Shown piece after piece: positions 3,997 through 38,447 of a stretch of DNA of 40,956 bases. Below the pieces are notes generated by a model, which saw only the letters and a list, made by a program, of their open reading frames with translations, did no database searches and had not been told where the DNA came from. The DNA comes from an uncultured Candidatus Saccharibacteria bacterium (GTDB lineage: Bacteria; Patescibacteriota; Minisyncoccia; Minisyncoccales; JANBVM01): positions 5,324 to 46,279 of the forward strand of contig CAZMJM010000002.1 in assembly GCA_964566875.1 (NCBI GenBank). Reading direction: 5' to 3'. Each line of letters opens with the position of its first letter. The stretch's first letter is position 1. The translations under genes were made by a program, and so were the position numbers.

Positions 3997-4003
3997 TTTT
4001 TTT

Positions 4004-4030
4004 AAAAAAAGAGAGCAGATTAACTGCTCT
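4004..4030 (-). terminator. Intrinsic terminator of the TFB-like gene (overlaps its stop codon)
   Basis: Stem agagcag (4012-4018) / ctgctct (4024-4030), 5-nt loop. On the minus strand it is followed by T7 (complement of A7 at 4004-4010). Confidence 0.6.
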
Positions 4031-4958
4031 TCATAGTAATTATTATCTCAGGGAAAAACTTGCATATTTCCTTGTGCCTGTTCCTTAAGGTCACTTCAGT
4101 GACGTGTACAATTTCTGCAACCTCTTTCTGCGTCTTGGAAATGCCTTCACTTTCTTTGCAGATGCCGTATATCAGGCCCGCCAATACTCCGCTTGGGTCT
4201 TTTCCTACAAACTTACCGCTCTGCATTATTTCTTTAAAGGCAGGGAAAATTTTTTTCTTGATATTCATGGGTAATTCGAGTGCGGTTGCATAGCGATATA
4301 CAAAATCTTTCATATTTTCTCTGTCCTCCGCGTTAAAGAATGATTTTATCTCATCAGAAAGTACCAACTTTTGATAATCTTGGAAAATCCTTTTTTGCGT
4401 AAAACCGACAAGTTCTGACAATTCTTTAATCGGATTTTTGCCTAAATTGTTCCTGTATACAAGACAAAAGACAGCAGTAGCTAAGCATTTCCAATCTTTC
4501 CAATGGATGTTGGTGTCGACAGCTTTTTTCATTGCTTTCTTCATCTCTTTTTTGATAGCCTGGGATAGCGTAAAATGAGGATAAGCTCTCCTGATTATTT
4601 CATTTATGCAAATCGCTGCCGTCATATTGTGCTTTTCTTCCGGTGGCCTGAACCATTTTTCCGTTCTCCTTAAATTCCTTGCTTTTAAAGCGGCGGCGGG
4701 GTCTAGTTTTCTGCCAGAATCGTCCCTGTTGTTCATCCTTATTCTGGTCCCTTTACCGCCGGAATATTTCTCAACCGGAACCCTGGGATATGTGGGGTTG
4801 TCTTCGGGATAAAAGTTAACGCCTCCCTCGTGGTCAAAGCAGCGTTCTTCCAGAACGAGGCCGCAGTCCAGGCAGACAATTTCTCCGTTCTTCTCATCAT
4901 AGGTTGTATTCTTATGGGCGCATTCTGGATATTGATAATTATGATTATTAATTATCAT
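4020..4958 (-). CDS. TFIIB/TFB-like transcription factor homologue (zinc ribbon plus two cyclin-fold repeats)
   Basis: N-terminal ribbon PECAH...YDEKNGEIVCLDCGLVLEE. C-terminal GKDPSGVLAGLIYGICK...TQKEVAEIVHVTEVTLRNRHKEI closely resembles archaeal TFB (GKSPAGL...TQREVAEVARVTEVTVRNRYKEL). The first ATG at 4958 is preceded by SD AGAGGTG (complement of 4965-4971) at 6-nt spacing. The ORF-track start 4967 is GTG. Confidence 0.85.
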   Translation of the reverse strand: MIINNHNYQYPECAHKNTTYDEKNGEIVCLDCGLVLEERCFDHEGGVNFYPEDNPTYPRVPVEKYSGGKGTRIRMNNRDDSGRKLDPAAALKARNLRRTEKWFRPPEEKHNMTAAICINEIIRRAYPHFTLSQAIKKEMKKAMKKAVDTNIHWKDWKCLATAVFCLVYRNNLGKNPIKELSELVGFTQKRIFQDYQKLVLSDEIKSFFNAEDRENMKDFVYRYATALELPMNIKKKIFPAFKEIMQSGKFVGKDPSGVLAGLIYGICKESEGISKTQKEVAEIVHVTEVTLRNRHKEICKFFPEIIITMKSS

Positions 4959-5018
4959 ATCATTCACCTCTTTTTAAACGAGCTTTTTATATTCAAAATC
5001 TTAACAGAATTTCACCCT

Positions 5019-5046
5019 TTGTCAAAATGGCTTTAAAGAATAAAAT
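5019..5046 (+). promoter_or_regulatory. Candidate cysS promoter giving a leaderless or near-leaderless mRNA
   Basis: TTGTCA (5019-5024), 16-nt spacer, TAAAAT (5041-5046). The ATG at 5055 is 8 nt downstream and has no SD. Confidence 0.4.
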
Positions 5047-5054
5047 TTATTATA

Positions 5055-6467
5055 ATGAATAAATCCATGCTCAAACTGTACAACACCTTAGCCAGGAAAA
5101 AACAGGTTTTCAGGCCCATTAAACCTAAGAAGGTCAACATTTTTGTTTGCGGACCGACCGTCTATGATTTTTCTCATATTGGGCATGCAAGGACCTACAT
5201 TTCTTTTGACGTAATCGCCAAATACCTGAGGGAAAAGGGGTACGAAGTCTTTTATTTGCAGAACATTACCGACATTGACGACAAGATTATAAAAAGAGCG
5301 CGGGAAAAAAAGGTTTCCTGGAAGAGTTTGGCCAGGAAATTTGAGGAAGAATATCTCAAGGATATGAAAGTTCTTGGGGTAGACAGCGTTACCAGGTATG
5401 CCAGGGCCACCGATCACATCAAGGAAATCATTTCTCAGGTGGGGAGATTGGAGAAAAGAGGTTTTGGTTATAAGACCACCAACGGTATTTATTACGACAT
5501 AGCCCGTTTCAAAGAATATGGAAAACTCTCAGGGAGAACGGCGGTAATGGCAGAGGATTCCCTCTCGAGGATAGACGAGGGAGGGGAAAAAAGAAATGCC
5601 GGCGATTTTTGCCTGTGGAAATTCTCAAAGAAAAACGAGCCAAAGTGGAAGAGCCCCTGGGGAATGGGAAGGCCGGGTTGGCACATTGAGGATACGGCCA
5701 TTACCGAAAAGTATTTCGGGGCCCAGTATGATGTTCACGGCGGTGCCCGAGACCTGATTTTCCCGCACCATGAAGCGGAAATCAGCCAGATGGAGGCCGT
5801 TTCCGGGAAATCTCCATTGGTAAGGTACTGGCTTCACACCGGATTCCTGGTCATCGAAGGCCAGAAGATGTCAAAGTCTTTGGGTAATTTCATTACCATA
5901 AGGAAGCTCTTGAAGAGGGTATCTCCCAGAACCCTGAGGCTTTTGGTGGTAAAGACTCATTACCGCTCCCCTATTGATTTCAGCGAGAGATTACTCCTGC
6001 AGAGCAGAAAAGAAATTGAGAGGATGGATGAATTCCTGGGGAAAATAAAAAAGCTTGCTCAAGAAAAATCGGGGAAAAAGGTGAGAATGAAATTGATTAA
6101 AGATGCAGAGAAAGAATTTGACCGGGCCATGGAAGACGACCTCAATACTCCTTTGGCCGTCGCGGCAATTTTTAAAGTGATATCCGAAGGAAATAAGCTT
6201 CTGGATAAGGGCGGTCTGAATTCAATAGAATCTAAAAGGATTCTGGCCTTTTTTGAAAAAGTAGATAGAATCTTCAGCCTTGATTTGGCGAAGGTAAAAA
6301 AAATAAAAATCCCTCAAAAGATAAGGAATTTAATGTACCAGAGAGAAAGGTTAAGGCAGGATTCTCTATGGGATAAAGCTGACGACATCAGAAAAGAGAT
6401 TGAAAGAGCAGGCTACCAGATTGAGGATACGTCAGAGGGCCCCAAAATCGTTAAGCGGACGAAATAA
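5055..6467 (+). CDS. cysS: Cysteine--tRNA ligase
   Basis: HIGHAR and KMSKS motifs. MLKLYNTLARKKQVF matches the canonical CysRS N-terminus, so the second ATG at 5067 is an alternative start. Confidence 0.95.
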   Translation: MNKSMLKLYNTLARKKQVFRPIKPKKVNIFVCGPTVYDFSHIGHARTYISFDVIAKYLREKGYEVFYLQNITDIDDKIIKRAREKKVSWKSLARKFEEEYLKDMKVLGVDSVTRYARATDHIKEIISQVGRLEKRGFGYKTTNGIYYDIARFKEYGKLSGRTAVMAEDSLSRIDEGGEKRNAGDFCLWKFSKKNEPKWKSPWGMGRPGWHIEDTAITEKYFGAQYDVHGGARDLIFPHHEAEISQMEAVSGKSPLVRYWLHTGFLVIEGQKMSKSLGNFITIRKLLKRVSPRTLRLLVVKTHYRSPIDFSERLLLQSRKEIERMDEFLGKIKKLAQEKSGKKVRMKLIKDAEKEFDRAMEDDLNTPLAVAAIFKVISEGNKLLDKGGLNSIESKRILAFFEKVDRIFSLDLAKVKKIKIPQKIRNLMYQRERLRQDSLWDKADDIRKEIERAGYQIEDTSEGPKIVKRTK

Positions 6468-24496: not shown

Positions 24497-24834
24497 TCTT
24501 TTAAGAGTTTTTCGAGTTCCCACAGCGTATCTTCCGGTATGGGGGGCGCTTCCCCTTTCGGGCTGATTCCGGGATAACGCCAGGCGCTTATTATCTTAAT
24601 GTTTTTATTACCCGCCGACAGAACCTTCTGATACATCATCCATATTTCGGTGGGGTGTTTTTTGGTGCCTGCTCTCTGCATGGCGGCTACGGTCTGGGGG
24701 GCGATACCCAGTTGTTTTCTGTCAGGGTCTCTCATGACCCTTTTGACCCGGCTTTTGGATAAGCCGTAATACTTCATTTTCCTTTCCGAATGCCTGGTCC
24801 AAACTATTTTATCGGCAGGCTTTATCAGTTTCAT
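24493..24834 (-). CDS. Small protein, DUF4258-like (toxin-like fold suspected)
   Basis: IVWTRHSERKMKYYGLSKSRVKRVM resembles the DUF4258 H-x-x-x-R-x-x-x-R-G-I motif. Weak, by eye only. Confidence 0.4.
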   Translation of the reverse strand: MKLIKPADKIVWTRHSERKMKYYGLSKSRVKRVMRDPDRKQLGIAPQTVAAMQRAGTKKHPTEIWMMYQKVLSAGNKNIKIISAWRYPGISPKGEAPPIPEDTLWELEKLLKE

Positions 24835-25679
24835 TATTCTAAGAGAAGCCCTGCTTCTTCCCGCAGTTTTTCTATTTCTCTTGGCGAAATCTTCAGCCTG
24901 CTGGCCAGACTCTTGGTGGAGAATTCCAAAATATCCCGCGCCATCATTATTCTTTCTCTGGCGAAAATTTCCTTAAAGTACCTCTTGAACGAAGGGAGGA
25001 TGGTAATGGGATAGAGATTTTGTTTCTCTATCATTTTTTCCAACCCCCTCCTTGGAGGAAATTTCCAGCCCAGGAGGTCTATATCAGTGCATCTGGCGTA
25101 TCTTTTAATTTCGGAAGTGAATTTGACATTGGTAACTATCAGCGGTCTCACCTTCTGTCTCTTAAAATAGGTTCCCTTCTTTATGTCCAGGAACCTGGCG
25201 TAGCTGATCAGGCCTACTTTCAGGTCCACCCGGTTGCCGGCCTGGTGATGATATTTGCACTCAGCCAGGTGGACAACCCCGCCCTTTTTGGCGACAAAAT
25301 CTATTTCATAAGAGCCTATGCAGAAACCGGGGATTAGCTGGTTCATTTCCACTTCAAATCCGTTTCTGGTGAAGACTTCCCCTACATATTTTTCAAAGTC
25401 AAATCCGCTGGGTCCCAGCTTCCTCATGGCGTCTTTCAGGGAAAATTTGATTCCCGAACGAAAGGAGGTTCCTATGAGCCGCTGTTTTACGGAATTGAAT
25501 ATCTCCGAAGTCTCAATGCCCGGATACACCTCGCTCCTTATCTGTTCGGCGATATCCCTGGCCAATCCCTTGGAAGCGCCTATCCTGCGGCACGAATTAT
25601 AAACCTTACGAAAGGAAAATGGCTCTCTTTCTCCCCTATTGTTTATGACGTAAATCTTTTCTTCGGCCATTATAACCAT
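24834..25679 (-). CDS. ATP-cone domain fused to a PD-(D/E)xK (Mrr_cat-like) restriction-endonuclease domain
   Basis: N-terminal ATP-cone pattern (KIYVINNRGEREPFSFRKV...). Nuclease core YEIDFVAKK...VHLAECKYH. Confidence 0.78.
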   Translation of the reverse strand: MVIMAEEKIYVINNRGEREPFSFRKVYNSCRRIGASKGLARDIAEQIRSEVYPGIETSEIFNSVKQRLIGTSFRSGIKFSLKDAMRKLGPSGFDFEKYVGEVFTRNGFEVEMNQLIPGFCIGSYEIDFVAKKGGVVHLAECKYHHQAGNRVDLKVGLISYARFLDIKKGTYFKRQKVRPLIVTNVKFTSEIKRYARCTDIDLLGWKFPPRRGLEKMIEKQNLYPITILPSFKRYFKEIFARERIMMARDILEFSTKSLASRLKISPREIEKLREEAGLLLE

Positions 25680-25719
25680 TGTAAAAGAAATTCTTCCTCT
25701 TTGGAAGTATGTTTTCTCT

Positions 25720-25755
25720 AAAATAAAAAAAGAGAAAATAATTTATATTTTCTCT
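25720..25755 (-). terminator. Intrinsic terminator after the zinc-ribbon miniprotein genes
   Basis: Stem agagaaaat/attttctct (25731-25739/25747-25755). On the minus strand it is followed by TTTTTTATTTT. Confidence 0.6.
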
Positions 25756-25761
25756 AAAAAA

Positions 25762-25893
25762 TTAATATAGAGGTTCATTGCAGTTGATGCAATGTTGACC
25801 CCTGTCCCATCTTATTGAATTAATGGGATTCGCTTCGCCGCAATTCGGGCAGTAACAGACCGATTTTTTTCCAATCGATTCCATAGGCGGCAT
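25762..25893 (-). CDS. Zinc-ribbon miniprotein MPPMESIGKKSVCYCPNCGEANPINSIRWDRGQHCINCNEPLY (43 aa, below the ORF-track cutoff)
   Basis: CPNC...CINC knuckles. Starts 19 nt after the upstream ORF and is followed by a terminator. Confidence 0.5.
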   Translation of the reverse strand: MPPMESIGKKSVCYCPNCGEANPINSIRWDRGQHCINCNEPLY

Positions 25894-25912
25894 TCTAACG
25901 GGGACCAGACCC

Positions 25913-26134
25913 TCATTCAAAGAGCGTTGCAACAAGAGAAATCACCCTTCCTTCGTTTTTAATAATATCTTTGGGACGGACATAACCGTTAACCGATTCC
26001 GAGTTCCATGGGTTTTCCTTTTTTCTTTGAATGGCTGGTGCCAGGTTCTGAAAATTTCCGCATGCTCGACATTGGGCAGCAAATCCCAAATTCCTTCTGA
26101 AATTACCTCCACACTCACATTTCTGTTCTGACAT
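25913..26134 (-). CDS. Cys-knuckle small protein (73 aa)
   Basis: CxC...CxxC pattern (CECGG...CRACG). Good SD AGAGGT 7 nt upstream of the ATG. Confidence 0.55.
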   Translation of the reverse strand: MSEQKCECGGNFRRNLGFAAQCRACGNFQNLAPAIQRKKENPWNSESVNGYVRPKDIIKNEGRVISLVATLFE

Positions 26135-26168
26135 TTTTTATACCTCTTTATTTTTTAAGGTACGATGC

Positions 26169-26213
26169 GAGGCTTTTGCCTCACCCTCTCCCTCTTCGGG
26201 AGAAAAGAGAGGG
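26169..26213 (-). promoter_or_regulatory. Structured 5' leader (two hairpins) ahead of the 73-aa gene
   Basis: GAGGC-TTTT-GCCTC (26169-26182) and an imperfect hairpin at 26184-26213 around CTCCC-TCTTC-GGGAG. Confidence 0.3.
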
Positions 26214-26220
26214 GGTCGGA

Positions 26221-26252
26221 CAAAAATAAAACTCCCAGGTCTTGTCTGGGAG
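26221..26252 (-). terminator. Intrinsic terminator after the 33-aa peptide ORF
   Basis: Stem ctcccag/ctgggag (26232-26238/26246-26252). On the minus strand it is followed by TTTTATTTTTG. Confidence 0.6.
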
Positions 26253-26278
26253 GTAAGGTGTTGCGGGTATTCTCTAGT

Positions 26279-26380
26279 CTATCTGTGTCTTACTCTTTCA
26301 AGCTTCAAACCTCCCAGGAAACCTAGGATAATAAATAGGACAAAAATAATCTGAGAAGTTGTGAAGTTTGAATTATTCAT
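26279..26380 (-). CDS. Small hydrophobic peptide MNNSNFTTSQIIFVLFIILGFLGGLKLERVRHR (33 aa, below the ORF-track cutoff)
   Basis: One predicted TM helix plus a basic tail. Has its own promoter-like element upstream and terminator downstream. Confidence 0.4.
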   Translation of the reverse strand: MNNSNFTTSQIIFVLFIILGFLGGLKLERVRHR

Positions 26381-26403
26381 AAAATCGTGAATCCTATTAA
26401 TTT

Positions 26404-26432
26404 AAGATAACGGCAACCGTCCGAACTGTCAA
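26404..26432 (-). promoter_or_regulatory. Candidate promoter for the 33-aa peptide ORF
   Basis: On the minus strand: TTGACA (complement of 26427-26432), 17-nt spacer, TATCTT (complement of 26404-26409). Confidence 0.45.
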
Positions 26433-26548
26433 GTGGAAAACCCTATTTGCCTCTCCTGTGCGCTGAGACTTGAATCCGTACGGAACAACTCATCATCTTT
26501 CAGTGTTTTAAAATATTCGTGTGAAGACGGCCGATTACAATCTACCTG

Positions 26549-26800
26549 TTAATTTAAGGCCCCCTCTTTTTTGAGTAGCGCCCTCTTCTTGGCAGCCCCG
26601 CCCCTGAACCCTCCGATTGTGCCGTCTGCGCGTATTACCCGATGGCAGGGTACTTTGGTGCTTCTGTTTTCGTGCATGATATTCCCTACCGCCCGCCAGG
26701 CATGGGGGGAACCGGCCTTTTCGGCCACCTCCTTGTAGCTTAAAGTCTTTCCCCTGGGGATTTTAGCCACTACCCTATTAACTTTGTCTCTGAAAGTCAT
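26549..26800 (-). CDS. ogt: MGMT-family protein (O6-alkylguanine-DNA alkyltransferase DNA-binding/active-site domain only)
   Basis: IPRGKTLSYKEVA...RAVGNIM...PCHRVI active-site motif. Homology starts at MTFRDKV (ATG 26800). The ORF-track extension to 26842 translates a repeat region. Confidence 0.8.
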   Translation of the reverse strand: MTFRDKVNRVVAKIPRGKTLSYKEVAEKAGSPHAWRAVGNIMHENRSTKVPCHRVIRADGTIGGFRGGAAKKRALLKKEGALN

Positions 26801-26887
26801 AGAACACATAGCATAAATCACATAACACGGATTGCATAACATGGATCACATAACACATAGATATTATTTTGCATGCTAGTGCTTTGA

Positions 26888-26923
26888 TACGCCATAATTC
26901 AACATATGTTTAGTTATGGCGTA
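26888..26923. repeat. 36-bp imperfect palindrome
   Basis: tacgccataa (26888-26897) / ttatggcgta (26914-26923) flank the inner perfect palindrome aacatatgtt (26901-26910). Confidence 0.8.
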
Positions 26924-26930
26924 TTCATTT

Positions 26931-26992
26931 AAAACCTCTAAAACCTCTAAAACCTCTAAAACCTCTATAACCTCTATAACCTCTATAACCTA
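26931..26992. repeat. 9-bp tandem repeat, about 6.8 units
   Basis: aaaacctct x4, then ataacctct x2, then a partial ataaccta. The minus-strand units read AGAGGTTTT/AGAGGTTAT. The last unit overlaps the MBL gene stop. Confidence 0.9.
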
Positions 26993-28360: not shown

Positions 28361-28969
28361 TTACCACGTGATAAGGAATTCGTGATGTCCATCGCCTTTA
28401 TGGCTGCATTTGACTTCCTTACAATCCAGATTGTCTTTTTTCAGCACCATTTTGGCTATGGAGGCAAAGTAGCCTTCCATACACCTGCAGAAAATCGGAT
28501 GGAGATTAAATTCTTTTATTTTCATAATGATGTATCTTTTTTCTTCGTTATATTCTGCAAATTCCAGCTCTCCCTCAGTCCAATAGGTTCTCCACATCTG
28601 CTGGGCCTTTTTCATGACTTCGGGCAGAGAATATATGTATTTTGAGAAAAGCCTGACAATTAAAGATATTCTGGGGTGAAAATAGCATACGTTCCTGATT
28701 TCCTCATCACCAGAATTAAGAACCTTTTTAATGGCCAACAGAGATACCGCTCTCATACCGCCGGGAATGAATTCCATCTCCTTTATCTCCCGGTATTTTA
28801 TGGGATACCCCAGCCTTTCCCATTCCTTTTCTACTTTTTCCAGGACTTGTTTTCCCTTAGTCTTTATAATATATTCCCCGTCGTGCTTGACATTAAAACC
28901 CCTTGTTTCAAAGGAGGTGTTTTCAATCAGGCTTTTAGCTTTTGCGGGGTCGATTGTTGCTTCTGTCAT
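28361..28969 (-). CDS. H-NOX/V4R-fold (DUF2378-like) paralogue P1
   Basis: Shares the family pattern ETRG...LGYPIKY.EIKEM.F.P...HP..C...GYFAS...CKEVKC..KGD..HEF.ITW with P2-P5. Confidence 0.6.
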   Translation of the reverse strand: MTEATIDPAKAKSLIENTSFETRGFNVKHDGEYIIKTKGKQVLEKVEKEWERLGYPIKYREIKEMEFIPGGMRAVSLLAIKKVLNSGDEEIRNVCYFHPRISLIVRLFSKYIYSLPEVMKKAQQMWRTYWTEGELEFAEYNEEKRYIIMKIKEFNLHPIFCRCMEGYFASIAKMVLKKDNLDCKEVKCSHKGDGHHEFLITW

Positions 28970-28976
28970 AATTTAT

Positions 28977-29591
28977 TTACCAGTTTAATACAAATTCGTG
29001 ATATTCGTCTCCTCGAAAGACGCATTTTTCTTCCCGGCAGGTCACGGGTTTTCCAGTAATCATCTGGACTACGCTGGCGAAATATCCTATCAAATTCTGA
29101 CACTGCAGGGGATGAAGCTTGAAATTTTTGAGGCGGACAACAGCTTCTCTGTTTTCCTGGTCGAATTTCACAACCTCCAGGTCTCCGACGGTATAACTCT
29201 CCCTCCATATCTTAGGAGCTTCTCTGGCTACTATTTCCGGTGAGAAGAAGTACTTCATAAACATTCTTATCAGGAAGGATACCTTGGGTTCGAACCTTCC
29301 CATTTCCTGGAATTTTTTCGTGTCATAGTGGAAAAGTTTCTCAGCGCCGCACAGCACCAGGGCTTCCAGCCATACGGGATAAAAATCCATCGTCTTTATC
29401 TCTTTTAGTTTTATCGGGTAGCCCATATCGTTTATTTTTTTCTCCAGCTTCTCGACCCCCTCATCTCCCTCTTGTTCAAGAATAAAGTCAACCTCCCCTT
29501 TAATGGCGATCCCTCTGGCTTCCCCGGATATACTCCTCAATCCTTCAAATTCTTCTTTGGAGAATATTGGCTCTTCCATGTTATTATCCAT
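28977..29591 (-). CDS. H-NOX/V4R-fold (DUF2378-like) paralogue P2
   Basis: GEARGIAIKG, MGYPIKLKEIKTMDFYP, FMKYF, HPLQC..LIGYFASV, CREEKCVFRGDEYHEFVLNW. Confidence 0.6.
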   Translation of the reverse strand: MDNNMEEPIFSKEEFEGLRSISGEARGIAIKGEVDFILEQEGDEGVEKLEKKINDMGYPIKLKEIKTMDFYPVWLEALVLCGAEKLFHYDTKKFQEMGRFEPKVSFLIRMFMKYFFSPEIVAREAPKIWRESYTVGDLEVVKFDQENREAVVRLKNFKLHPLQCQNLIGYFASVVQMITGKPVTCREEKCVFRGDEYHEFVLNW

Positions 29592-29596
29592 TATTT

Positions 29597-30205
29597 TTAC
29601 TTTCCCCAGCTTACCAGAAATTCATGATATTCGTCTCCGCGGGACATGCATTTTCTTTCTTCGGATTTGACTTCTTTATTGACAACCATCTTAACGATGC
29701 TTATGAGATAGCCTTCAACGGTGAGACAATGGATGGGATGGAGCTCGAAGTCGTTTATCCGGACAACGATGTACCCTTTTTCTTTGTTGATTTCCGTAAC
29801 CCTCAGATTTCCTTTGGTATAATACTTTCCCCAGAACTTTGGCGCCTCTCTGGCGATGGTTTCCATGGAAACGAAATATTTCATAAACAGCCGCACTATC
29901 AGCGAAACCTTGGAATTAAACTCTCCCATCTTGATAAAATCTTCCTGCGAAAAATGGAATAATTCCTCCATCAGGAGAAAGGCGATGGCTTCCAGGCCCA
30001 CCGGATAAAAATCCATTTCCTTGATTTCCTCGTACCTGATGGGAAACCCCAATTCTGCGGCTCTTTCTTCTAATTTCGCCAGGGCCTCCTTCCCTTCTCT
30101 GTAAAGAATGTATTCCAGATCGCCCTTGATGGAAATTCCCCTTGTTTCTCCAGGAACTTTCATCAGCTCCCCGGCTTTTTCTTTTGTAAGTTTTTCAGGT
30201 TCCAT
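29597..30205 (-). CDS. H-NOX/V4R-fold (DUF2378-like) paralogue P3
   Basis: GETRGISIKG, LGFPIRYEEIKEMDFYP, FMKYF, HPIHC..VEGYL, ERKCMSRGDEYHEFLVSW. Confidence 0.6.
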   Translation of the reverse strand: MEPEKLTKEKAGELMKVPGETRGISIKGDLEYILYREGKEALAKLEERAAELGFPIRYEEIKEMDFYPVGLEAIAFLLMEELFHFSQEDFIKMGEFNSKVSLIVRLFMKYFVSMETIAREAPKFWGKYYTKGNLRVTEINKEKGYIVVRINDFELHPIHCLTVEGYLISIVKMVVNKEVKSEERKCMSRGDEYHEFLVSWGK

Positions 30206-33190: not shown

Positions 33191-33799
33191 TTACCAGCTT
33201 ATTACAAATTCGTGGTGGCTGTCTCCCCTGTGAATGCATTTTTCTTCCCGGCATGAGGCTTCACTGCCCACCACCATCCTTACCACGCTGGCAAAGTAAC
33301 CTTCCAGGCTGATACAGTGGTCGGGATGGGCTACAAAATCTTCCAGCACCATGATTCCCCGCCTGGTCTCATTATTGATTTCCCTGACCTCAAGGTTGCC
33401 TACGGTATAATTTTTCTTCCACATTTTGGAAACCTGTTTGGCGGCCACTTCAATGGAAATAAAATACTGCATGAATACGCGTACCAGAAGAGAAGTCTTC
33501 GACTCGAATGCCCCCATCTCCCTTATCTTCTCGTCATCAAAATCAAATATCTTTCGGGCAGCAACAATGGTGGCGGTTTCCATACCTAAGGGGTAAAAAT
33601 CCATTTCCCTGATGCCCCTGTAGTCTATAGGGTGGCCCGCTTTCTTCATTGCCTCCTCCAATTCACTCAATCCCGCCTCGTTCTTTTCCTTAAGAACGAA
33701 TCTGCCGTGGCTTTTAATGGCAACTCCCCTGCTCTCTCCGGAAATTTTCATTATCTCTCCGATTTCTTTTGCCAGCTCGTTGAATTTGCTTTGTTCCAT
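33191..33799 (-). CDS. H-NOX/V4R-fold (DUF2378-like) paralogue P4
   Basis: GESRGVAIKS, AGHPIDYRGIREMDFYP, FMQYF, HPDHC..LEGYFASV, CREEKCIHRGDSHHEFVISW. Confidence 0.6.
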   Translation of the reverse strand: MEQSKFNELAKEIGEIMKISGESRGVAIKSHGRFVLKEKNEAGLSELEEAMKKAGHPIDYRGIREMDFYPLGMETATIVAARKIFDFDDEKIREMGAFESKTSLLVRVFMQYFISIEVAAKQVSKMWKKNYTVGNLEVREINNETRRGIMVLEDFVAHPDHCISLEGYFASVVRMVVGSEASCREEKCIHRGDSHHEFVISW

Positions 33800-37467: not shown

Positions 37468-37848
37468 TTATTTTTTCTTTTCCACCCTCACGTTCACCTT
37501 CCGCAGATTCGTAAGAAATTCCAAACTTTCCGCCTCGTTTATTTTTCCCACTACGGTCACCGGACTGGCCGGCTTCGGTTCCTCACCCTTACTGGCCGGA
37601 GTCTGGCCGAAAAAAATGCACAGAGCATTGCCCGGGGGCCAGTAAGCCAGGTCTCCCACCGACAGTTTCAATGTCGGCTTTTCGTTGGGCTCGGCCATAT
37701 TTATGCTGAAGTAGATTTCATTCCCCCAGAAATTAGCTTCGGCCTCAATAGGCAGGATATTATAGATGTTTTTGGCGGTTTTTGTACCATTGAGAGAAGC
37801 CTCCATCTTTTTGCCGCCGACCGTGATGATTATCTTCTTCATCTTCAT
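37468..37848 (-). CDS. Cyclophilin-like fold protein (PF04126-like)
   Basis: NGTKTAKNIYNILP...WGNEIYF...VGDLAYWPPGNALCIFFG pattern. The ATG at 37848 overlaps the P5 stop as ATGA. The ORF-track start 37854 is GTG. Confidence 0.7.
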   Translation of the reverse strand: MKMKKIIITVGGKKMEASLNGTKTAKNIYNILPIEAEANFWGNEIYFSINMAEPNEKPTLKLSVGDLAYWPPGNALCIFFGQTPASKGEEPKPASPVTVVGKINEAESLEFLTNLRKVNVRVEKKK

Positions 37849-38447
37849 TCCCACTCAAATAAGAATTCGTCGTAAGGTTCCCCTTTGAGAGAGCACTTCA
37901 CTTCCCGGCACTTCCCCCTGGCTCCCACCACCATTTTGGCTACTCCTCTGAAAAATCCCCTAACTACCTGGCAGAGCAGCGGAGTAGTGTGAAATTCGGT
38001 AAGTCTGAGGGAGATATACTTTTTCTCTTCGTCGTAATCGGTCAGTTCGATTTCCCCGACGGTAAAGTATTTTCTCCAGACCTTCGGGGTTACCTCGGCC
38101 ATCCTCTTGATGGAGACGAAGTTTTTCATGAACAACTTGATAATCAAGGACATTCTGGAATTAAAATCTCCGATTTCGCAAAACTTATCATCCTGGTAGT
38201 TGAAAATTCTTTTGATGGCTAATAAAAGGATACAGTAGAAATTCAGGGGGTAAAACCCCATCACTTTCACGCCTTTGTATTTAAAAGGATATCCCAGCTT
38301 CTCCATTTCCTCTTCTATTCTTTCCAGGGAACCCTCCCCCTGTTCTTTGAGGATAAATCGGGAGTGGTTTTTCATGCTTACTCCCCTTATTTCTCCAGGA
38401 ATCTTTTTAAGCTCCTGTAATTCCTCTTGTGATATTAAAGGCGGCAT
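37845..38447 (-). CDS. H-NOX/V4R-fold (DUF2378-like) paralogue P5
   Basis: GEIRGVSMKN, LGYPFKYKGVKVMGFYP, FMKNF, TPLLC..VRGFF, CREVKCSLKGEPYDEFLFEW. Confidence 0.6.
   Translation of the reverse strand: MPPLISQEELQELKKIPGEIRGVSMKNHSRFILKEQGEGSLERIEEEMEKLGYPFKYKGVKVMGFYPLNFYCILLLAIKRIFNYQDDKFCEIGDFNSRMSLIIKLFMKNFVSIKRMAEVTPKVWRKYFTVGEIELTDYDEEKKYISLRLTEFHTTPLLCQVVRGFFRGVAKMVVGARGKCREVKCSLKGEPYDEFLFEWE

Follow-up and report, generated by a model that had tools for sequence, protein, structure and literature searches.

The 40,956-nucleotide stretch of DNA analyzed here (contig CAZMJM010000002.1, positions 5,324 to 46,279; hereafter the window), assigned to an uncultured Candidatus Saccharibacteria bacterium, carries on its minus strand a gene for a homologue of the archaeal transcription factor TFB and of eukaryotic TFIIB. 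TFB and TFIIB are a hallmark of archaeal and eukaryotic transcription start, and bacteria use sigma factors. The gene is a real and intact member of the TFB/TFIIB superfamily, collinear with archaeal TFB from end to end, and it stands back to back with cysS:

4020–4958, minus strand: coding sequence of the TFB/TFIIB-like protein (protein cluster P0001), 312 amino acids, ATG start, TAA stop
5055–6467, plus strand: cysS, the invariant divergent neighbor, which adjoins the TFB-like gene in every locus examined

The open reading frame (ORF) can also be read from a GTG codon, giving a 315-residue protein from 4020–4967 of the minus strand. This GTG falls within the Shine-Dalgarno sequence AGAGGTG, and the ATG at 4958 lines up with the start of the orthologue at the related locus L004. 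Because the alternative codon sits in the Shine-Dalgarno site, we take the ATG at 4958 as the true start, which confirms the coordinates (4020–4958) given in the original prediction, a reading of the DNA sequence on its own.

That prediction had called the protein a full-length archaeal TFB/TFIIB homologue and proposed two Pfam profiles for checking it, both of which match above their cut-offs: PF08271 (Zn_Ribbon_TF) with 37.2 bits (cut-off 29) over residues 14–47, and PF00382 (TFIIB repeat) with 56.9 bits (cut-off 23.6, E = 2.2e-15) over residues 218–302. The NCBIfam model NF001658 aligns residues 7–303 with model positions 10–304 of 312 at 120.9 bits; this score does not reach the family threshold of 384 bits, and the window protein is therefore divergent. 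The closest solved structure is TFB of Pyrococcus woesei (1ais_B, E = 1e-16), with human and yeast TFIIB and Brf1 ranking next. When a profile of the bacterial family was compared by hhalign with one built from 15 named archaeal TFBs, 286 columns aligned collinearly with a probability of 100% (E = 8.1e-44). An AlphaFold2 model of the window protein (mean predicted local distance difference test score, pLDDT, 80.4) displays the ribbon strands, a disordered stretch at 42–71, a helix at 87–99, and ten helices across 106–301 at a pLDDT of ∼90. In a Foldseek search of the PDB with this model, the 35 best matches were all TFIIB, TFB, or Brf1, mostly over ∼300 aligned columns, with cyclins ranking after them. 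Homology to the sigma-70 family was considered and dropped: Sigma70_r4 (Pfam) touches the C-terminal helix-turn-helix at E = 0.022 and 14.7 bits (cut-off 24.1), the sigma model TIGR02937 scores 14.6 bits (cut-off 42.9), and sigma regions 2 and 4 are not matched significantly. Database labels for the family already exist, namely “transcription initiation factor TFIIB” (JGI) and [quoted passage not shown] (NCBI).

The domains of the window protein were delimited as follows:

4848–4937, minus strand: zinc ribbon, residues 8–37, from PF08271 and model strands at 18–21, 26–29, and 35–37
4779–4838, minus strand: degenerate B-reader region, residues 41–60, with EGGVNFY in place of GPEWRxF
4644–4778, minus strand: B-linker-like segment, residues 61–105, with a GKGTRIR strand, a NNRDDSGRKLDP insert, and a LKARNLRRTEKWF helix
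4344–4643, minus strand: cyclin repeat 1, residues 106–205, remodelled, with the family-specific motif FCLVY...NPIKE
4053–4343, minus strand: cyclin repeat 2, residues 206–302, from PF00382 (46.7 bits against repeat 2 of 1ais_B)
4065–4100, minus strand: helix-turn-helix recognition helix TEVTLRNRHKEI, residues 287–298, from alignments to known structures

Judged from its sequence, the protein has kept its zinc ribbon, its two cyclin folds, the putative DNA-reading helix of repeat 2, and, in part, the B-linker; the B-reader is gone. We expressed retention as the share of archaeal-conserved residues kept, comparing the bacterial family with 28–43 canonical archaeal TFBs. The zinc ribbon retains 84–91%, and that of the window protein also matches the 1pft_A ribbon (E = 6e-4). 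The loss of one of the four canonical ribbon cysteines, claimed earlier, is confirmed. The window ribbon has three (Y10-P-E-C13 ... C29-L-D-C32), with C13, C29, and C32 as candidate ligands; Tyr10 stands where the family has its first cysteine, and His15 is a possible substitute ligand. The 69%-identical orthologue P0002 retains all four (CPEC...CKTC), as do 14 of the 17 aligned family members, the exceptions being the window protein, which lacks the first, P0006, which lacks the third, and P0008, which has VCEC for CPEC.

The reader/linker-like region of the original prediction stands in part: a B-linker is kept in part, LRRTEKWF being its helix, and the B-reader itself is lost. B-reader boundaries were set after Pyrococcus furiosus TFB1 (PMC13502027). 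A TFB depends on this element to open promoters and to place the start site, and mutations in it disrupt promoter opening (PMC13502027). Retention in this region is 20%; the window protein has none of the residues G-P-E-W and a pLDDT below 50 over residues 42–71. The same residues are almost wholly gone across 11 bacterial members, and the GPEW motif occurs in 0 of 17 aligned members. Given the loss of the B-reader, a role for the window protein as a standard TFB initiation factor is unlikely. The B-linker, by comparison, is partly kept, at 57–67%, with GKGTRI against archaeal KGLSTEI, LRRTEKW against RLRKWQ, and the modelled helix at 87–99. Its residues D79, G82, and R97 are nearly invariant in the bacterial family; at position 95 the window protein has Asn, where Arg is usual.

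Both predicted cyclin-fold repeats are borne out, on different evidence. Repeat 1 is not detected by Pfam in the window protein; it is backed by hhalign, the NCBIfam alignment, Foldseek, and AlphaFold2 helices with a pLDDT of ∼90 or more. Its retention is 21–46% across the family and 21% in the window protein. By this repeat the family divides into two groups, one fairly canonical (P0022, P0074, P0272–P0275) and one remodelled, which includes the window protein and carries the new conserved motifs FC.LYK..GNPNPI. Repeat 2, found by Pfam, retains 54–75% across the family and 70% in the window protein. Its recognition helix is the segment closest to archaeal TFB, window TEVTLRNRHKE closely resembling archaeal TEVTVRNRYKE. 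V289 and R292 in this helix align with V283 and R286 of human TFIIB, two residues that contact the BRE. T290, R294, and K296 are invariant in an eight-member alignment of the bacterial family. In TFB and TFIIB, the helix-turn-helix motif of repeat 2 reads the TFB/TFIIB recognition element (BRE) (PMC6101591).

The TFB-like gene is bounded by signals of bacterial type, through which it appears to be transcribed and translated:

4998–5025, minus strand: predicted sigma-70-type promoter, with TTGACA at 5025–5020, a 16-nucleotide spacer, and TG-TAAGAT at 5003–4998
4965–4971, minus strand: Shine-Dalgarno sequence AGAGGTG, with a 6-nucleotide spacer to the ATG
4002–4030, minus strand: predicted intrinsic terminator, hairpin 4030–4012 with a 7-bp stem (AGAGCAG/CTGCTCT) and a T-run

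The predicted promoter fits the consensus at 10 of 12 positions and has an extended −10 TG; this is a consensus match, with no mapped transcription start. TTGACA is invariant in six divergent loci, each of which also has a TAnnnT-like element at the right distance, an A-rich stretch, and GGAGG/GGTG. The A-rich stretch and GGAGG/GGGTG are conserved in L004, L007, L010, L012, and L013, and over the intergenic DNA as a whole L004, L007, and the window share 90% identity. The terminator overlaps the stop codon of the TFB-like gene and lies before the convergent PALP gene, and L004 has the same hairpin. The Shine-Dalgarno sequence with its 6-nucleotide spacing and the rho-independent terminator had both been noted in the original prediction; the sequence bears them out, the first being conserved in relatives and the second recurring in L004.

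The intergenic region is shared with cysS, whose predicted −35 element (TTGTCA, 5019–5024, plus strand) overlaps the −35 of the TFB-like gene on the opposite strand. In this region (5019–5054) the three closest loci carry TTTGACAAA without a change, and its core, TTGACAA, is common to all six aligned loci. No Shine-Dalgarno sequence precedes the cysS ATG at 5055, which lies ∼8 nucleotides after the predicted −10; an in-frame ATG follows at 5067. For these reasons the cysS transcript may be leaderless, or 5067 may be its translation start. Two forms of cysS occupy this site. The DALR_2 form is found in the window, L012, and L020 (68–77% identical to the window copy), and the CysS_C form in L008, L010, L011, L013, and L015 is only 36–44% identical, while dnaB, dnaX, and GT4 stay at ∼70%. 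The presence of two forms at one site suggests replacement in place, or very fast evolution, beside the TFB-like gene.

Pfam annotation of the window genes upholds the earlier observation that every neighbor is bacterial. The neighbors are dnaX, GtrA, a cysK-like PALP enzyme, cysS, GT4, dnaB, recR, rmuC, mraZ, mraW, a penicillin-binding protein (PBP) transpeptidase, and clpB; the window also encodes tyrS. Related loci carry bL21 and GreA, and L015 an extracytoplasmic function (ECF) sigma factor. An archaeal (DPANN) contig is ruled out by mraZ, mraW, PBP, dnaB, dnaX, recR, bL21, GreA, and the ECF sigma factor.

The TFB-like gene occupies one position in a conserved block: P-ATPase, permease, Na-Ca exchanger, rmuC, bL21, recR, dnaB, GT4, and cysS on one side, and GtrA and dnaX on the other. 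Divergent cysS, the TFB-like gene, a PALP gene in some loci, GtrA, and dnaX follow in this order in independent assemblies of other samples (L004, L007, L008, L009, L010, L011, L012, L013, L015, L016, L018, and L020), the cysK-like enzyme adjoining the TFB-like gene in the sub-clade of the window. Among them are two complete chromosomes labelled Candidatus Nealsonbacteria, CP179889.1 (647,540 bp) and CP179890.1 (675,639 bp). In CP179889.1, recR, dnaB, GT4, cysS, the TFB-like gene, GtrA, and dnaX lie within the 12.9 kb examined. The full block is present in CP179890.1 and on a 636-kb contig, and several further assemblies show it as well; the family members there are 26–34% identical to the window protein. 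Closer orthologues agree. Upstream of a 69%-identical one, found on a 1.2-kb contig of a different sample, cysS begins in the divergent direction, and downstream lies, convergent, the C-terminus of the same pyridoxal phosphate (PLP)-dependent enzyme as in the window. A 43%-identical one has the same arrangement on two contigs, one short and the other of 61.7 kb. Nine protein clusters occur at this site (P0001, P0002, P0006, P0007, P0008, P0010, P0022, P0074, and P0156). Occupancy of a single chromosomal position by nine clusters therefore indicates orthology by synteny and vertical descent.

A chimeric assembly or mis-binning is ruled out, since the junctions on both sides of the gene recur in at least 12 independent assemblies, including two complete chromosomes. 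The original prediction had judged the gene domesticated rather than misassembled and had named a contig chimeric at its flanks as the outcome that would speak against this; the flanking junctions are the same throughout those assemblies and the bacterial signals are conserved, so that its judgment is upheld. The carriers are small-genome bacteria of the candidate phyla radiation (CPR), and their nearest sequenced relatives are labelled Candidatus Nealsonbacteria. A scan of GTDB with the single window protein gave no match, and one with a narrower alignment found only two species representatives; a metagenome scan added one further TFB-like locus.

Two observations concern the genomes that share the block. 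The 636-kb contig (CAYVDD010000001.1, loci L019/L008) is titled “uncultured Candidatus Saccharibacteria bacterium,” but in gene order and proteins it fits the Nealsonbacteria-labelled genomes; its TFB-like protein, P0007, for one, shares 64–65% identity with the CP179890 protein. The Saccharibacteria label is probably wrong. DnaB of CP179890 (877 amino acids; L011, 4533–7166) carries an intein with a LAGLIDADG domain, and a 592-residue mini-intein form occurs in L015 (5437–7215) and L016 (2808–4586); dnaB of the window (451 amino acids) has no intein.

For the TFB-like gene, comparison of the window with L004 gave proportions of differing nonsynonymous (pN) and synonymous (pS) sites of 0.17 and 0.65. 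Because synonymous sites are saturated (pS = 0.65–0.78), ratios of nonsynonymous to synonymous rates (dN/dS) are rough, and we relied on relative dN and on pN lying well below pS. Against L020, the TFB-like protein is 43% identical with a dN of 0.47, and seven neighbors are 77–93% identical with dN values of 0.035–0.13. The gene is under purifying selection yet evolves 4–13 times faster than its neighbors. Deeper comparisons give 26–34% identity for the TFB-like protein versus 66–76% for dnaB, dnaX, GT4, and rmuC. Within the protein, window against L004, change is fastest in the ribbon (45% identity) and in repeat 1 (59%); the former reader segment, the linker, and repeat 2 are 78–80% identical, with residues 41–105 at 80%. 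The GC content of the gene (0.407) and its GC content at third codon positions (GC3) are the lowest among 17 window genes, and its codon usage does not fall outside the local range. All 17 aligned members have an intact ORF. A decaying relic or pseudogene is effectively ruled out by these intact ORFs, by pN well below pS, and by the conserved promoter.

A neighbor-joining tree of 97 sequences, the phylogeny for which the original prediction had called, places the bacterial proteins in one clade with the pair P0074/P0075 as sister; support is limited, the bootstrap reaching only 46% for the group of 11 and 85% for its core of 10. P0074 was found to lie in the bacterial synteny block. In profile searches, the nearest archaeal relatives are Micrarchaeota when window-like members are used, and Asgard, Thermococci, and TACK archaea when slower-evolving members are used; both searches show a clear score gap below the bacterial members. 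Micrarchaeota were considered as the donor and dropped, as TFBs of Asgard, Thermococci, and TACK archaea lead, with similar scores, when the profile of slower members is used. The nearest archaeal group thus shifts with the query, pointing to no one donor, and with the score gap this suggests an old transfer. One such transfer from an archaeon, followed by vertical inheritance, is the simplest history, and we are close to certain of the identity and history of the gene, taken jointly, as read here.

Mobile elements were searched for relatives as well. The profile of the viral family PHROG 20431, 293 positions long, aligns with the window protein over its whole length (E = 5.6e-23), which indicates that TFB-like genes circulate in viruses of archaea. 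The sole TFB-like match in the phage collection was Sulfolobales virus YNP2, and the plasmid matches were haloarchaeal only; no bacteriophage, bacterial plasmid, or viral-contig relative was found in the phage, plasmid, and viral-contig searches, and PADLOC gave no defense-system match for the gene. A phage, plasmid, or defense origin is thus unsupported, given the housekeeping flanks, the exclusively archaeal mobile matches, and the empty PADLOC result. In the literature, we found no paper on TFIIB or TFB in Nealsonbacteria, Parcubacteria, Patescibacteria, or CPR bacteria, and neither two papers on Patescibacteria and archaea nor the supplements on Candidatus Nealsonbacteria DGGOD1a mention a TFB-like protein.

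As to function, we tentatively favor a DNA-binding transcription regulator that would act inside the bacterium, possibly tethered to RNA polymerase and possibly at the promoter region shared by cysS and its own gene, though we put this somewhat below an even chance. The helix-turn-helix of repeat 2 would provide sequence-specific DNA binding, and the retained ribbon and linker could tether the protein to the homologous dock and clamp of the bacterial polymerase. A plausible target would be the divergent cysS/own promoter, where the predicted −35 elements overlap. That all ∼300 residues are retained in genomes of ∼0.65 Mb argues that the whole protein is in use.

Several points weigh against this regulator. 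TFB binds DNA mainly via the TBP-DNA complex, and Pfam scans of 41 window ORFs, nearly all of the long ones, found no TBP domain, which upholds the earlier statement that the window has none; no TBP was seen in the 12–20 kb flanks of L008, L011, L012, and L015 either. The loss of zinc ligands in the window protein and P0006, together with the fast-changing ribbon, makes tethering to RNA polymerase a weaker idea for the sub-clade of the window. The gene is the fastest of its block (26–34% identity versus 51–76% for most neighbors), which is unexpected for a housekeeping regulator. Monophyly in the tree is weakly supported by the bootstrap values given above. Finally, we infer DNA binding, the target site, and polymerase contact from the protein and DNA sequence, and the putative promoter and regulatory target are read from consensus matches.

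An alternative places the action of the protein outside the cell, as a host-directed decoy or effector that would act on the RNA polymerase dock and clamp of an archaeal host, on its TBP-promoter complexes, or on both. It would be a natural dominant-negative or reprogramming TFB, unable to support promoter opening because the B-reader is absent. The pattern of retention fits this: the recruiting and binding modules (ribbon, B-linker, cyclin folds, and BRE-reading helix) are kept, and the opening module is lost in 17 of 17 members. A dN 4–13 times that of the neighbors under purifying selection is a pattern common in host-interaction proteins, and TFB genes are mobile in archaea (haloarchaeal plasmids, an archaeal virus, PHROG 20431). 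The closest complete genomes are labelled Candidatus Nealsonbacteria, a label under which some bacteria live attached to methanogenic archaea; Candidatus Nealsonbacteria DGGOD1a attaches to Methanothrix (bioRxiv 10.1101/2022.04.20.488981). PMC13293708 reviews how related lineages parasitize archaea. However, TFIIB is absent from the DGGOD1a supplementary tables, and the window organism is tied to archaeal hosts solely through its taxonomic label. The N-terminus, MIINNHNYQYPEC, is polar and, by eye, without a hydrophobic signal-peptide-like stretch. The gene has replication and housekeeping genes around it, none for secretion beside it, and a predicted promoter of ordinary sigma-70 type. Repeat 1, which faces TBP, is heavily remodelled in the sub-clade of the window, and the protein shows no special similarity to Methanothrix-type TFBs, its nearest archaeal relatives varying by query. 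We consider such a decoy unlikely.

The cyclin folds and the ribbon might instead have been reused outside transcription, as a protein-protein scaffold in, for example, a process tied to cysteine or cysS. Cyclin folds can bind proteins in versatile ways, and cyclins are the next Foldseek matches, with much weaker E-values; repeat 1 has gained new conserved family-specific motifs; and the link to cysS is invariant, with a cysK-like enzyme also adjacent in the sub-clade of the window. Yet the best-kept archaeal-type residues are those of the DNA-reading helix (TEVTLRNR.K), and gene adjacency by itself proves no functional link, so we regard a scaffold as decidedly improbable.

A further possibility is an alternative initiation factor, co-adapted to the bacterial polymerase and sigma-like at a subset of promoters. 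TFIIB and sigma take topologically similar places on their polymerases, a very small genome has preserved the ribbon, the linker, and the putative DNA-reading helix together, and the C-terminal helix-turn-helix has its marginal Sigma70_r4 match (E = 0.022). That match is nevertheless far under threshold (14.7 versus 24.1 bits), the B-reader, counterpart of the sigma 3.2 finger, is lost, and two members show a ribbon in the course of losing its zinc ligands. The lineage has ordinary sigma factors (ECF sigma, L015), and such a role has no known precedent. We think it very unlikely. Put as a single either-or proposition, that the protein is a cross-domain mimic jamming or redirecting archaeal host transcription or else a TFB re-fitted to bacterial RNA polymerase, the idea is rather unlikely.

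An artefact or decaying relic (a chimera, a mis-binned archaeal fragment, or a pseudogene) might be read into the lowest GC (0.407) and GC3 among the 17 window genes tested, the lost zinc ligand, and the very fast rate of change, but it is barely credible beside junctions shared on both sides by at least 12 independent assemblies including complete genomes, ORFs intact in 17 of 17 members, pN well below pS, a conserved promoter, and codon usage within the range of the neighbors.

The rest of the window holds other features. Five paralogues of ∼200 amino acids lie on the minus strand (28361–28969, 28977–29591, 29597–30205, 33191–33799, and 37845–38447), three of them in tandem; each has a weak C-terminal V4R match (E = 4e-6 to 1.4e-4), under the Pfam cut-off. 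The region 25680–26980 is 1.3 kb without a long ORF and has no Rfam match. It contains two small overlapping ORFs (25762–25935 and 25913–26134) with zinc-ribbon-like CxxC...CxxC motifs, and a 97-residue ORF (26549–26842) with a PCHRV motif typical of methylated-DNA-protein-cysteine methyltransferases. Beside it, 24834–25679 of the minus strand encodes a 281-residue protein whose sole match is to the AF1548-like C-terminal domain, named after an Archaeoglobus protein.

Among known systems, archaeal TFB (Pyrococcus TFB1; PDB 1AIS and 1D3U) and eukaryotic TFIIB share with the window protein, in which the B-linker is kept in part, the order of ribbon, B-linker, and two cyclin repeats over ∼300 amino acids. 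The window gene differs from them in its bacterial host, its predicted sigma-70-type promoter, Shine-Dalgarno, and intrinsic-terminator signals, the lack of a TBP seen nearby, and an evolution far faster than that of its neighbors. Bacterial sigma-70 factors are a functional analogue, bridging promoter DNA and polymerase via a C-terminal helix-turn-helix; they give no significant sequence match, and the fold of the window protein is one of cyclin repeats. TFB homologues on mobile DNA (PHROG 20431, Sulfolobales virus YNP2, and haloarchaeal megaplasmids) all have archaeal hosts, and unlike these viral and plasmid copies the window gene is chromosomal and syntenic. The role of the protein would bear on whether a TFB can touch a bacterial polymerase, a point in the debated relationship of sigma and TFB, and on whether archaea-dwelling CPR bacteria manipulate host transcription.

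The nearest known cases are archaeal TFB paralogues that no longer serve as general factors. P. furiosus TFB2 opens promoters less efficiently; it resembles the window protein in being full-length, with ribbon and core present and the conserved B-reader/B-finger absent. It is a natural variant without the conserved N-terminal B-reader sequences (PMC13502027). TFB2 works with an archaeal RNA polymerase and TBP in an archaeon, and neither partner is known from the cell of the window protein. Sulfolobus TFB3, a regulator or activator paralogue without the B-finger (PMC6101591, PMC6101594), has likewise left the general-factor role; it is truncated and also lacks the helix-turn-helix, and hence has no DNA-binding domain (PMC6101591), whereas the window protein is full length and keeps the helix-turn-helix. 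Neither TFB2 nor TFB3 resides in a cell without archaeal machinery. Long retention of the bacterial gene at one locus, under purifying selection and in genomes of ∼0.65 Mb, indicates that the fold is useful without its usual partners, and the part that the protein plays would show to what extent ribbon, linker, and cyclin modules lend themselves to new uses.

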